From the UHGV virus genome UHGV-0243446: 11,725 bases of DNA; one strand, given 5' to 3'. Shown piece after piece: positions 3,744-10,049 of the stretch; position 1 is the first letter of the stretch, and each line of letters starts with the position of its first letter. The translations under genes and the position numbers were made by a program. This DNA comes from a virus. The notes under the pieces are model-generated. The model was not told the origin of the DNA. It did not search any database and saw only the letters and a program-made list of their open reading frames with translations.

Positions 3744-4250
3744 TTAAATTGCGTGAATAGCGTGACGAGGGAAGGGGAGAGTTACTGGTGCAAAGGGTAT
3801 ATCGTCGTCAAAATCCATCGGAGGTTCGTTGTGTTGTGCTGGTGATGATTGCTGCTGTGGCTTCTGTGATTGCCTGCTGGCTGCTTGTTGTTTGCTGTCG
3901 CCAATGCCGCCAAGCATTTGCATCACGCCATTAATTCCGACATGAACCTCGGTTGTGTAACGGTCTTGCCCTGACTGGTCTTTCCACTTTCTGGTTCTCA
4001 GCATTCCCTCGAAATAAATCTGATCACCTTTTTTCACATACCGCCCAACGACCTCAGCCAGTTTCCCGGATACAGCAACACGATGCCATTCAGTCAATTC
4101 CTTTTGCTCGCCAGTATTTTTATCTCGCCATTGTTCTGACGTGGCTATTGTCAGGTTAGCGAACGCTGTTCCTGATGGTGAGTATCGAACTTCCGGGTCT
4201 TGTCCTACCCGACCAAGGATAATCACCTTATTTACGCCTCTGCTTGCCAT
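3744..4250 (-). CDS. ssb: Single-stranded DNA-binding protein (SSB) with C-terminal extension
   Basis: N-terminus [13 protein letters not shown]...DPEVRY...TEWHRV...[11 protein letters not shown] closely resembles E. coli SSB, followed by a Gln/Ser-rich tail and [10 protein letters not shown]. The ORF then continues 15 codons ([15 protein letters not shown]) before the stop. Confidence 0.9.
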
Positions 4251-6517: not shown

Positions 6518-6817
6518 TCAAATAAGTGGTTTGCTGCCTAATTTCATTTTCTGGCGACCAACACAAGTCACACCCATTTCACTGCGTGGCTTGCTGTAGT
6601 AAATACGGTTCTGTTTACGCTCGACTTCTTCTGCCTTCTTGCAGCGAAGGCTTCCGAGTGATGCTGCTTTGTCTGCTCTGACGCAACCAGAGAGCTTTAG
6701 CGCAATTTTTCGCGCCAGTCGCTGTTCTTGCATTGCCTGTTCACGTTGAGCCTGTCTGCGTGCTCTGCGGCGATTTCTGGTGTTATCGTCAGCCAGATAT
6801 GTAATGACTACTGCCAT
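6518..6817 (-). CDS. N: N-family transcription antitermination protein
   Basis: ATG at 6817 with GGAGG RBS 5 nt upstream. N-terminal arginine-rich motif (TRNRRRARRQAQREQ). C-terminal region (RKQNRIYYSKPRSEMGVTCVGRQKMKLGSKPLI) resembles lambda N. nutL lies upstream in the leader. Confidence 0.85.
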   Translation of the reverse strand: MAVVITYLADDNTRNRRRARRQAQREQAMQEQRLARKIALKLSGCVRADKAASLGSLRCKKAEEVERKQNRIYYSKPRSEMGVTCVGRQKMKLGSKPLI

Positions 6818-6923: not shown

Positions 6924-6966
6924 TTCCCGCATTTCGGCGGGACAATCCCATCAATGTTAAAGAGCC
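6924..6966 (-). promoter_or_regulatory. nutL: boxA (GCTCTTTAACA) plus boxB hairpin (TCCCGCCGAAATGCGGGA)
   Basis: On the minus strand the boxB 19-mer is identical to the one downstream of cro (nutR). The boxA-like CGCTCTT core precedes it. Located about 40 nt downstream of the predicted PL start. Confidence 0.75.
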
Positions 6967-7004
6967 TGCCAATCTGTTCCGTTTGGCTTCCAGCGTCCTG
7001 CTGA

Positions 7005-7100
7005 TGGCTAAAGAATACTGTAGGTATTTTATTGTGTAAATACCCAAGGTATTTATTTTTGGTGAAATAATGATAAGCAAATGAATACAAAGGATATTTA
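7005..7100 (-). promoter_or_regulatory. PL promoter with OL operators
   Basis: Minus-strand -35 TTTACA (7040-7035), 17-bp spacer, -10 TATTCT (7017-7012). 17-bp dyad sites GAATACTGTAGGTATTT (7013-7029), AAATACCCAAGGTATTT (7038-7054) and a weaker GAATACAAAGGATATTT (7083-7099). Same half-site family as the OR sites. Confidence 0.6.
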
Positions 7101-7185
7101 TTTTTTTCGGTGTCTGCTTGTTCAGTGCTTTTTATGCGGGATATGTGAAGTGGATCCCGATAGCTATTGCTGCCGGGATTATGGG

Positions 7186-7575
7186 TTAGTCAGCGAAGGT
7201 TAAGACGAGAATTACCTTAATGATGTCTGCTACAACAGACACGGCCATAGATAAACCAAAGACAATCCAAGCCATAGAGATGTCTTCACTACCATCGTAT
7301 AGAGTTCCGTAATCACTGGTGTAAGGCGTAAATGTCGCGCCTTGATACAACAGGTATAAGCTTGAACCATAGAGGATAAATGCAGATATCCCTTGTATTG
7401 CTATGATCACCAGAATCATGAAACGAGCTGATCTATGCGCCCAAGCCTGGCTTATTTTTTCTGATAGAGATTTCGCAATAAAAGCATGCGCTAAGCCGTA
7501 AATTGTCGAGATTTCCAACATCCCCAAAAAGCTTGCTATAGCGGTTCCAACCATAATCGCCCCTTGCGTGATCAA
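7186..7575 (-). CDS. Small polytopic membrane protein (3 predicted TM helices) in the rex/immunity-region position
   Basis: Track ORF begins with TTG overlapping the cI stop. An ATG about 7554 with AAGGGG RBS is likely the real start (about 122 aa). Three hydrophobic segments of about 22-25 residues. Downstream of cI on the same strand, as rexAB is in lambda. Confidence 0.6.
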   Translation of the reverse strand: MITQGAIMVGTAIASFLGMLEISTIYGLAHAFIAKSLSEKISQAWAHRSARFMILVIIAIQGISAFILYGSSLYLLYQGATFTPYTSDYGTLYDGSEDISMAWIVFGLSMAVSVVADIIKVILVLTFAD

Positions 7576-8288
7576 ACCAGCCTTAGTTTTGTCTCAATTG
7601 CAACGCCTATAATCTTGCAGTTTCCATTGATTGGCACGAGAGGCCATGCAGGATTAAGTCCCTTGAGGTATTTATTTCCGCCGTCGATTATCAGCTTCTT
7701 GAATGTTGCTTCGTTAGAGTCAGAAAGTTTTGCTATGACCAAGCTGCCGTTGATCGCCTCCCTTCCGGTATCGAAAAGAACGAATGTTCCCTCTGGAATG
7801 CTTAACCCAACCGGTGCCGTCATTGAATCACCTTCCACTTTAAGCCAGAACGCATTACCTTGAATATGCGCGTCAGACTCAAGCCAAACATCTATGTCTT
7901 TAATGGTGTATGGTTCGCATGCTTCACACCACGAGCCAGCCTGGATACTGCTTAACACCGGATACCTCTTTCCTGCTCTGTATTCCCCTGCATACCTTAC
8001 GTTGGCATCGCTCTTAAGGCTTTCTGCCTGTTCTGCAACCTTGGCAGCAATTGACTGGCTAAAATCAGCAATTGAGACTTGCAACAGTCGTGCAAAACCA
8101 GATGCAACCTCAACGTTTAGCGCGTTTCTGCCATTAAGATAATGCCCTACCGCTCCTTGGGTGATACCCAGTTCATCAGCGATTGAGTATTGGGTTATTC
8201 CCAATTCTTTCTTTTTTGACTCATACAAAGCCTTAAGCCGCTTAGCGTCTTCGAGCTGTTCTGTCGTCAGTGATTTTTTATTTTCCAT
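7572..8288 (-). CDS. cI: cI-type phage repressor (HTH N-domain plus S24 LexA-like autoprotease C-domain)
   Basis: N-terminus MENKKSLTTEQLEDAKRLKALYESKKKELGITQYSIADELG resembles lambda cI. Ala-Gly cleavage site in IQAGSW. Catalytic Ser in GDSM and Lys in FKKL. Start codon abuts the operator region. Confidence 0.92.
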   Translation of the reverse strand: MENKKSLTTEQLEDAKRLKALYESKKKELGITQYSIADELGITQGAVGHYLNGRNALNVEVASGFARLLQVSIADFSQSIAAKVAEQAESLKSDANVRYAGEYRAGKRYPVLSSIQAGSWCEACEPYTIKDIDVWLESDAHIQGNAFWLKVEGDSMTAPVGLSIPEGTFVLFDTGREAINGSLVIAKLSDSNEATFKKLIIDGGNKYLKGLNPAWPLVPINGNCKIIGVAIETKLRLV

Positions 8289-8394
8289 AGCTTAATTCTA
8301 ATAGCTAAGGTACTTAAACTAAAAATACCCTGAGTATTGATTGCTTTGAATACCTGTAGTATTCTTTGTTCATGGTTAATAACGGAGAGTGCAT
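8289..8394. promoter_or_regulatory. OR operator region with divergent PRM and PR promoters
   Basis: Dyad sites AATACCCTGAGTATT (8324-8338) and GAATACCTGTAGTATTC (8348-8364); possible weak third site about 8299-8316. PR: -35 TTGATT (8337-8342), 17-bp spacer, -10 TATTCT (8360-8365). PRM on the minus strand: -10 TAGAAT (8300-8295), weak -35 TTTAGT (8323-8318), start at or near the cI AUG (leaderless). Confidence 0.65.
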
Positions 8395-8589
8395 ATGATT
8401 CGAATGACACTTGCCGATTACGCCAAAATCCATGGACAGGCTAAAGCAGCCAGTGACTTTGGTGTAATCCAGTGCGCTATCAGCAAGGCCATTCTGGCAG
8501 GCCGTAACATTATGGTTACGGTAAAGCCTGATGGCAGTGTGATTGGAGAGGAAGTTCGTCCTTTCCCAAGCAACAAGAAAAACAAATAG
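8395..8589 (+). CDS. cro: Cro repressor
   Basis: Product [64 protein letters not shown] resembles lambda Cro. GGAGAG RBS at 8384-8389. The track start at 8389 is a GTG; ATG at 8395 is preferred. Confidence 0.88.
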
Positions 8590-8595
8590 TAACAC

Positions 8596-8640
8596 CGCTC
8601 TTTAACAGTCATGGTCCTCATTCCCGCCGAAATGCGGGAA
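8596..8640 (+). promoter_or_regulatory. nutR: boxA (CGCTCTTTAACA, 8596-8607) plus boxB hairpin (8621-8640)
   Basis: boxA matches the lambda boxA core CGCTCTT. boxB TTCCCGC-CGAAAT-GCGGGAA is a perfect 7-bp stem and is identical to the nutL boxB. Confidence 0.75.
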
Positions 8641-9172: not shown

Positions 9173-10049
9173 GTTAGCTGATTACAGGCATAACCCTGTA
9201 CAACATCAGGAGGCATCCAGTATGGGGTATGTCTCTATACACCGCCAGTTTATGGACAGCAGGCTCTATAAGGACTCTCAGGCAGTACATCTTTGGCTTC
9301 ACTTAATCCTCAAGGCTAATCACGAATCTACTGTCGTCAATACGGATATCGGTCCGATAACTGTTGATCGCGGTCAGATGATAACTGGACGCCCGTCGCT
9401 GGTCAGAGAAACATTCATCCCCGACAACAAAGTTCGGAGCTTATTACGGACTTTTGAGTCGAAAGGGATGCTTAATATTTGCTCGATGGGGAAGAAATTT
9501 AGCCTGTTTACAATCGTTAAATATGACGATTTTCAGGCAAAAAATTGTCCAACGGTTGTCCAACGGTTGTCCAACGCAAACACCAGTAATGGCGCGGCTC
9601 TCAGCGGAGATTGTCCAACGGTTGTCCAACGGTTGTCCATAAACAATAATATAAATAATATCTCTAATACTGACGTATTAGAGAGTGCCACAGCAGACAA
9701 AAAGTCTGACAAGAAAAAACCTTCCGTCAGCTGTCAGGATGTTGTCGATGCTTACCACGAAATCCTTCCTGAAGCGCCAAGAATCCGCGCACTGAATGAC
9801 AAGCGTAAAAACCAGATCCGAACGTTCTGGCGCAAAGCCGGAGTGATAACCCGCCAGCTTGACGGGCATGGGTTCACGATGCAGGACTGGAGAAATTATT
9901 TGAGCTACGTAGGCGAAAATTGCCGATGGATGTTCGAAGAACGCCCAAACCATCAACGCGGAACCGTCTGGCACAAAAAGGGATTTGATTTCCTGCTTAA
10001 CGACAATACCTACCTGAAAGTTCGTGAGGGTGAACACGATGACCGATAA
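9159..10049 (+). CDS. Replication initiator (lambda O-like / replisome organiser) containing the origin iterons
   Basis: Sits in the O position and is translationally coupled to the helicase. Iterons and an AT-rich tract lie inside the coding sequence, as ori-lambda lies inside O. An alternative start at ATG 9222 has a strong AGGAGG RBS. Confidence 0.7.
   Translation: MGVVKLADYRHNPVQHQEASSMGYVSIHRQFMDSRLYKDSQAVHLWLHLILKANHESTVVNTDIGPITVDRGQMITGRPSLVRETFIPDNKVRSLLRTFESKGMLNICSMGKKFSLFTIVKYDDFQAKNCPTVVQRLSNANTSNGAALSGDCPTVVQRLSINNNINNISNTDVLESATADKKSDKKKPSVSCQDVVDAYHEILPEAPRIRALNDKRKNQIRTFWRKAGVITRQLDGHGFTMQDWRNYLSYVGENCRWMFEERPNHQRGTVWHKKGFDFLLNDNTYLKVREGEHDDR
9545..9643. repeat. Phage replication origin iterons: six copies of an 11-bp repeat TTGTCCAACGG in two triplets
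   Basis: Copies at 9545-9577 and 9611-9643 with 11-bp register. Followed by an AT-rich tract (9641-9665) and a 9-bp inverted repeat CTCTAATAC-TGAC-GTATTAGAG (about 9660-9685). Confidence 0.75.

Follow-up and report, generated by a model that had tools for sequence, protein, structure and literature searches.

Which sites do the repressor and Cro read in the immunity region of virus genome UHGV-0243446, and how closely does their arrangement follow that of lambda? The stretch of DNA analyzed here, hereafter the window, spans 11,725 nucleotides. Its segment 6500-9000 is 97-98% identical to the immunity regions of coliphages HZ41, HK140, HK620, HK630 and mEpX2 and of several Stx phages, and a search of 5426 complete E. 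coli genomes found the same immunity module in 146 (about 2.7%). Outside the immunity region, the window is a mosaic of lambdoid early genes unlike those of HK620.

Gene layout and operator dyads

The gene order is N, PL/OL, an hkaS-like gene, cI, OR, cro, nutR and cII. The following genes frame the two control regions:

6518-6817, minus strand: N, adjoined by PL/OL
7186-7554, minus strand: hkaS-like small membrane-protein gene, from the ORF list and its translation; HK620 annotates hkaS here
7572-8288, minus strand: cI repressor, 238 aa; Pfam HTH_3 and Peptidase_S24
8395-8589, plus strand: cro, 64 aa; Pfam Cro (PF09048, E-value 3.6e-26), full length

The cI and cro genes are divergent (minus and plus strand, respectively) and the control gap between them is 106 bp long, holding three dyads 24-25 bp apart. 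The hkaS-like gene sits downstream of cI, in the slot held by rexAB in lambda, and separates OR from OL, which lie 1.3 kb apart; no Pfam family above threshold was found for its product, and the gene is outside the operator system. Taken together with the control sites listed below, the region is in all probability a lambda-type lysis/lysogeny switch of the HK620/mEpX2 immunity type, in which six dyads would serve as shared operators of cI and Cro:

7013-7029: OL1, GAATACTGTAGGTATTT; perfect core, 19.6 bits; HK620 OL1 is annotated here; overlaps the PL -10
7038-7054: OL2, AAATACCCAAGGTATTT; perfect core, 21.4 bits (the best of the window); HK620 OL2 is annotated here; overlaps the PL -35
7083-7099: candidate OL3, GAATACAAAGGATATTT; one core mismatch, 13.6 bits (sixth in the window, the weakest of the six); 45 bp from OL2
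8299-8315: OR3, TAATAGCTAAGGTACTT; two core mismatches, 15.0 bits; same bases as HK620 OR3
8323-8339: OR2, AAATACCCTGAGTATTG; perfect core, 18.5 bits; HK620 OR2 is annotated here
8348-8364: OR1, GAATACCTGTAGTATTC; perfect core, 18.5 bits; HK620 OR1 is annotated here; overlaps the PR -10

The initial annotation had proposed five to six dyads with a common half-site, and six 17-bp dyads with the half-site (A/G)AATAC(C/T) were indeed found, three at OL and three at OR. An exact scan for AATAC-N5-GTATT located four perfect copies, at 7014, 7039, 8324 and 8349, while imperfect copies start at 7084 (one mismatch) and 8300 (two mismatches). When up to two mismatches were allowed, 12 matches were obtained against 4.75 expected, a number that none of 200 shuffles reached. 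A de novo count over the whole window, which took all dyads with 5-nt arms and spacers of 1-11, returned AATAC-N5 as the commonest (4 copies; the maximum in 100 Markov sequences was 3). The repeat finder independently sorted the six sites into two families (D1 and D3) and reported that OL1-OL2/PL and OR2-OR1/PR form an inverted repeat of 45 nt. Additionally, a weight matrix was built from 18 sites, all of them from three non-E. coli phages (Serratia, Hafnia and Erwinia). With this matrix, the six sites received the highest scores in the window (21.4, 19.6, 18.5, 18.5, 15.0 and 13.6 bits, the next being 10.8), although the training sites had been chosen with the very pattern of the initial annotation, which the de novo dyad count partly offsets. 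Random sequences gave on average 0.06 matches scoring at least 13.56 bits, with a maximum of 2. The seventh match of the matrix (9656-9672, 10.8 bits) falls in the A+T-rich O/ori region and was judged to be a chance occurrence. Concerning base conservation among the 12 half-sites, A2, T4 and A5 are present in all 12, A3 in 11 and C6 in 10; OR3 and OL3 have one poor half-site each.

The same dyads are found well beyond E. coli. The cI DNA-binding domain has 84% identity with that of Serratia phage OS31, 79% with Hafnia phage Pocitis76 and 68% with both Erwinia phage 49 and E. coli phage Fostie. The Serratia, Hafnia and Erwinia phages carry three dyads in the cI-cro gap, again 24-25 bp apart, and three upstream of N, with diverged flanks. 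Scanning of one genome per species yielded 33 more loci with 60-84% identity, all from Enterobacterales and distributed over Serratia, Yersinia, Pectobacterium, Pantoea, Tatumella, Proteus, Morganella and further genera. Nearly all of these loci have three dyads at set distances from the cI start. The density of matrix matches of at least 12 bits is 28 per kb within the 86-bp OR zone vs. 0.40 per kb elsewhere. Of 37 distinct loci, 24 have at least three OR matches, and in 25 of 36 relatives the de novo count again ranks AATAC-N5 first. The motif scan of related immunity regions, which had been suggested as a check, thus bore the proposal out, the dyads keeping constant positions across some 36 diverged loci.

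These data bear on whether the dyads could be chance A+T-rich palindromes or generic promoter sequence, devoid of a specific protein partner. Given the A+T richness of the region and the overlap of the half-site with sequence resembling -10 and -35 elements, the similarity of PL and PR could partly reflect promoter constraint. However, neither the shuffles nor any of the 100 Markov sequences reached the observed dyad counts, random sequences hardly ever match at the score of the sixth site, the motif recurs at OR3 and OL3 outside the PR and PL hexamers, and it keeps its positions in the diverged loci while the spacers vary. The statistics already refute this explanation in effect, and we give it almost no weight.

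The dyad operators of the HK620/mEpX2 immunity type are already annotated and are ordinary biology. The HK620 GenBank record (AF335538, 2001) has a 106-bp cI-cro gap and a Cro that are both 100% identical to those of the window and an OL region about 98% identical, and it places OL1, OL2, OR1, OR2, OR3, pL and pR at exactly the same bases as here. Since five of the six sites are annotated identically in that record, the finding is a correct rediscovery. In mEpX2, the cI-cro gap and Cro are also 100% identical to those of the window, and the OL dyads are identical between the window and phages of the HK620/mEpX2 type; mEpX2, HK140 and HK630 are the homoimmune relatives of HK620. The genome of HK620 was reportedly described by Clark et al. 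in 2001 (J Mol Biol 311:657). The operators predicted for Salmonella phage epsilon34 (WTACRAWWTGTAT; PMC2629481) have the same ATAC-N5-GTAT core and also adjoin early promoters, these sites being predictions only.

The left operator and the place of OL3

Two early promoters are interleaved with the dyads:

7012-7040, minus strand: PL, TTTACA-17-TATTCT; promoter scan 9/12; HK620 pL is annotated here; architecture kept in relatives
8337-8365, plus strand: PR, TTGATT-17-TATTCT; read from the sequence; HK620 pR maps to 8337-8372

As the initial annotation had stated, both promoters share the -10 hexamer TATTCT, located at 7012-7017 (minus strand) for PL and at 8360-8365 (plus strand) for PR. The promoter scan, run with a cut-off of 9/12, left PR uncalled, as it matches 8/12 positions. 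In both promoters the -10 hexamer lies within the right half of the first operator (GTATTCT in OL1 and OR1) and the -35 hexamer begins inside the second one (OL2 and OR2).

OL1 is in register with the OL1 of the relatives. An OL1/OL2 pair is present in 21 loci, 19 of which space the two sites by 25 bp and two by 24 bp. The third site is less uniform. Across the same 21 loci, the distance from OL2 to the best third OL site is exactly 45 bp in eight, exactly 21 bp in another eight and 29-30 bp in two, and three have no third site. The 45-bp class consists of the present window, two loci each from Serratia and Tatumella, and one each from Pantoea, Kluyvera and Phytobacter. The claim that the sites mirror the lambda operators relative to the promoters stands for OR1, OR2, OR3, OL1 and OL2 but fails for the third left site, because the latter is 45 bp from OL2 and not about 20 bp as in lambda. 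The 21- and 45-bp layouts differ by about one operator repeat.

The HK620 record differs at this point. It puts OL3 at the equivalent of 7060-7076 (TGGTGAAATAATGATAA), 22 bp from OL2 and hence near the lambda spacing, and it annotates a terminator, tIMM, at the equivalent of 7073-7103, enclosing the 7083-7099 dyad. According to this record, the dyad would be the terminator hairpin of the cI transcript and the true OL3 would be the deposited one; on the cI-sense strand the dyad is indeed followed by a T-rich stretch. The sequence of the deposited OL3, however, has no dyad, scores -22.5 bits with the matrix and ranks 5552nd of 11709 positions. Moreover, the window and HK620 differ by one base in this deposited site but agree throughout the 7083-7099 dyad. 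The supposed tIMM hairpin is that same dyad; it consists of A-U and G-U pairs only, and its RNA fold amounts to -0.6 kcal/mol, with 141 of 200 shuffles folding equally well or better. A scan for intrinsic terminators gave no call at 7083-7099 and nothing convincing at tIMM or in the whole stretch after hkaS. Furthermore, a dyad that matches the operator consensus is present exactly 45 bp from OL2 in seven other species with diverged spacers. The terminator reading is therefore one we consider improbable. On account of the dyad, its score, the weakness of the hairpin and the recurrence at 45 bp, the OL3 of the initial annotation (7083-7099) is better supported than the deposited one, and we lean slightly toward the view that the HK620 OL3 is misplaced and that the dyad at 7083-7099, 45 bp from OL2, is the genuine third left operator. 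A second promoter at the OL3 of the 45-bp class (…GTATTCAT) was considered and rejected, as it has no conserved -35 and its hexamer is missing the final T.

If this placement is true, the lambda-like switches of this family would have two discrete OL3 layouts, 21 and 45 bp from OL2. Such a difference could alter the pairing of OL3 with OR3 in long-range cI looping and, with it, the shut-off of PRM at high repressor.

The right operator and the start of cI

OR resembles its lambda counterpart. Lambda likewise has 17-bp dyads with a central base pair, three OR sites and the same overlap with PR and PRM. The centers of the OR sites are 25 and 24 bp apart (about 2.3 helical turns), leaving spacers of 8 and 7 bp vs. 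7 and 6 bp in lambda, and the sites overlap the PR -35 and -10 and the PRM -10. OR2 abuts the PRM -35 and overlaps that of PR; in an anchored alignment (31 loci) it forms the most conserved block. OR3 is the weakest of the OR sites; it overlaps the PRM -10, and its position is kept in the relatives. The maintenance promoter was read from the sequence as follows:

8295-8323, minus strand: PRM; -35 TTTAGT at 8323-8318, -10 TAGAAT at 8300-8295, 17-nt spacing

A weak PRM -35 next to the OR2-like site had been foreseen, and the hexamer TTTAGT agrees with it, matching 3/6 consensus positions and overlapping OR2 by 1 bp. The end of the PRM -10 is 6 nt from the cI ATG (8288), and the predicted transcription start is the A of that ATG, which would make the cI mRNA leaderless. 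The relatives are consistent with this earlier suggestion: of 37 related loci, 30 have a TAnnnT hexamer that ends 5-7 nt ahead of the start of cI, and a Shine-Dalgarno-like tetramer precedes cI in two and is absent from 35. With the -10 so widely kept and the tetramer so rare, a leaderless cI transcribed from PRM looks like a family trait, as it apparently is in lambda.

Repressor, Cro and operator specificity

Judged by their sequences, cI and Cro are true homologs of lambda cI and lambda Cro. The cI protein is colinear with full-length lambda cI (3bdn, E-value 3e-52), and in this alignment the self-cleavage features are kept, namely QAG, (G)DSMTAP and FKKL (the Ala-Gly site and the Ser/Lys dyad); an S24 self-cleavage domain is shared with lambda. 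Its N-terminal DNA-binding domain (first 91 residues) is 100% identical to those of mEpX2 and HK140 and 98.9% to that of HK620, with 53% identity to lambda. The best match of Cro among solved structures is lambda Cro (E-value 5e-19), and it is 100% identical to the Cro of both HK620 and mEpX2.

This homology also matters for whether both proteins use all six sites. Alternatively, only one regulator might do so (e.g., with OL3 and OR3 bound by Cro only, or by cI through long-range looping), giving a logic unlike that of lambda. The poor half-site in each of OR3 and OL3, the 45 bp rather than about 20 bp between OL3 and OL2, and OR spacers 1 bp longer than those of lambda all point that way. Against it stand the close homology of both proteins to their lambda counterparts, the similar overall layout and the conservation of the switch design across the family, so that we regard this alternative as unlikely, yet worth keeping in mind, and retain the reading in which cI and Cro share the six dyads.

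A recognition helix different from that of lambda cI was part of the initial annotation and is confirmed here (TQGAVGHYLNG vs. GQSGVGALFNG in lambda). The equivalents of lambda Gln33, Gln44, Asn55 and Lys4 are kept, while Ser45 is replaced by Gly and Ala49 by His. At the DNA level, the lambda half-site TATCACC differs from AAATACC at bases 1, 3 and 4, with A2, A5, C6 and C7 in common. In the lambda cI complex (1LMB), Gln33, Gln44, Asn55 and Lys4 make the contacts to A2 and to the base pair at C6, and Ser45 makes the contact to the pair at base 4. The specificity pattern therefore fits, because the kept cI residues read kept bases and the changed Ser45 reads the changed base 4. A covariation of the Ser45-equivalent (Gly/Ser) with half-site base 3 was also considered. 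It was dropped, because the Gly-bearing loci L018, L032 and L033 have drifted sites similar to those of phage Fostie, whose cI carries Ser and whose site is TAGTAC.

The recognition helix of Cro reads IQCAISKAI. Its changes from lambda are Tyr26 to Ile, Ser28 to Cys and Asn31 to Ser, and these are positions at which lambda Cro reads outer bases. An 'evolutionary code' that relates the Cro recognition helix to the half-site is said to have been set out by Hall, Lefevre and Cordes in 2005 and by Hall et al. in 2011. The reported correlations are Gln H1 with A2, Ala H3 with A5 and Lys H6 with C6, and the Asn of lambda Cro contacts base pair 3 (PMC6649833). With Gln H1, Ala H3 and Lys H6, the helix IQCAISK predicts A2, A5 and C6; AAATACC in the 17-bp register has all three, and they are present in 10 to 12 of the 12 half-sites. 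Two related Proteus loci depart from this code, as they have Gln at H6 yet retain C6, and the Lys H6-C6 rule is thus not universal in this family. Overall, as far as sequence comparison can tell, the changed bases 1, 3 and 4 match changed residues of cI and Cro, and the kept A2, A5 and C6 match kept contacts.

Given the homology to lambda and this pattern of contacts, the working model is that of lambda, written in a different operator alphabet. In the lysogen, cI dimers on OR1 and OR2, as well as on OL1 and OL2, would block PR and PL, since the -10 (GTATTCT) lies within these sites and the -35 (GTATTGA and GTATTTACA) extends into them. Bound at OR2, which adjoins the weak PRM -35, cI would most likely activate PRM, from which a leaderless cI-hkaS mRNA is predicted to start. 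Occupation of OR3 by Cro or by excess cI would switch PRM off through the overlap with its -10, and SOS-induced self-cleavage of cI would lift the repression. Within this model, we infer operator binding and its cooperativity, the ranking of site affinities, the activation of PRM and the positions of the transcription starts; no footprint, EMSA, ChIP or transcription-start data for the HK620/mEpX2 repressor, operators or Cro were found in the searchable literature.

A different immunity group had also been proposed, and published work agrees. Phage mEpX2, with an identical cI DNA-binding domain, forms an immunity group separate from lambda, HK022, phi80 and other mEp phages, so that lambda and the mEpX2-type phages are heteroimmune, and it has been possible to construct triple lysogens carrying lambda, HK022 and mEpX2 (PMC3442831).

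Beyond correct annotation, the importance of these operators is small. What the present analysis adds is a modest gain, that is, the footprint of the dyads across the whole family and a likely correction of the OL3 and tIMM features of HK620. Nevertheless, several Stx-converting phages also carry this immunity region, and with its presence in 2.7% of E. coli genomes, knowledge of the operators helps to predict superinfection immunity and prophage induction. Finally, the comparison across the family provides clean natural data on how changes of the recognition helix in cI and Cro relate to operator bases among close homologs of lambda.

Left operator layouts and operator-like sites

The left operators of this repressor family fall into two discrete classes, set apart by the distance from OL2 to the third site, which is exactly 45 bp in one and exactly 21 bp in the other. 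The following related cI-cro loci, which come from phage or Enterobacterales genomes, belong to them:

45-bp class: L004, L007, L010, L012, L013, L036, L037
21-bp class: L005, L009, L011, L014, L017, L018, L020

Every member of the 45-bp class has a third site of the form …(G/A)(T/A)A(T/C)TCA(T/A), with AAAATAAATA before it. This site resembles a duplicate of the OL2 left flank fused to the right half of OL1.

Two features of the GenBank record of coliphage HK620 that map to 7060-7103 of the window appear to be misassigned. The sequence recorded as 'OL3' (7060-7076) contains no dyad and scores -22.5 bits on the operator matrix, and the 'tIMM' hairpin (7073-7103), composed of A-U and G-U pairs with a predicted energy of -0.6 kcal/mol, is really the third operator-like dyad. 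The seventh-best match of the operator matrix in the window, TAATATCTCTAATACTG (10.8 bits), lies in an A+T-rich stretch within the O gene (9644-9672), the equivalent of which is the origin region in HK620, and is probably due to chance.

The cI-hkaS operon and the nut sites

The gene that HK620 names hkaS occupies the position of rexAB in lambda and is probably co-transcribed with cI:

7186-7554, minus strand, hkaS, hydrophobic protein of 122 aa

No Pfam family scored above threshold for this protein, which could have a role in exclusion or defence in the lysogen. No canonical intrinsic terminator was found 3' of the operon (7100-7190, minus strand); the only stable hairpin there, at about 7155-7180, lacks a U-tract. 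Unlike the window, related phages of Serratia and Erwinia carry a clear G+C-rich hairpin 3' of the cI operon, which in the case of Serratia comes with a T-run:

L004, 3219-3245
L005, 3839-3857

Both nutL (6925-6968) and nutR (8596-8640) were found in the window, in agreement with the annotated nut sites of HK620:

6925-6945, nutL boxB hairpin, TCCCGC…GCGGGA
about 6957-6968, minus strand, nutL boxA-like GGCTCTTTAACA
8596-8607, nutR boxA-like CGCTCTTTAACA
8621-8640, nutR boxB hairpin, TCCCGC…GCGGGA

The record of Hafnia phage Pocitis76 (L003) has a tRNA-Gly annotated at 3923-4002, between OL and the N gene, approximately where nutL would be expected; it may be a real tRNA or else a miscalled nut hairpin.

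Cro recognition helices and half-sites in relatives

In the Proteus loci L026 and L028, position H6 of the Cro recognition helix (HQTAISQAL) is Gln and not Lys, and the dyads of the cI-cro gap retain ATAC with C at base 6; these loci do not follow the published pairing of H6 with base 6. A sister clade was represented by the cI-cro gaps of the following loci:

L006, L018/L019, L023, L032/L033, L035

Its Cro helices read TQIAISK or TQMAISK and its half-sites have drifted to TAGTAC, TCCTAC and TCATAC, retaining only TAC. The sister clade probably represents at least one different immunity specificity, derived from the same scaffold.
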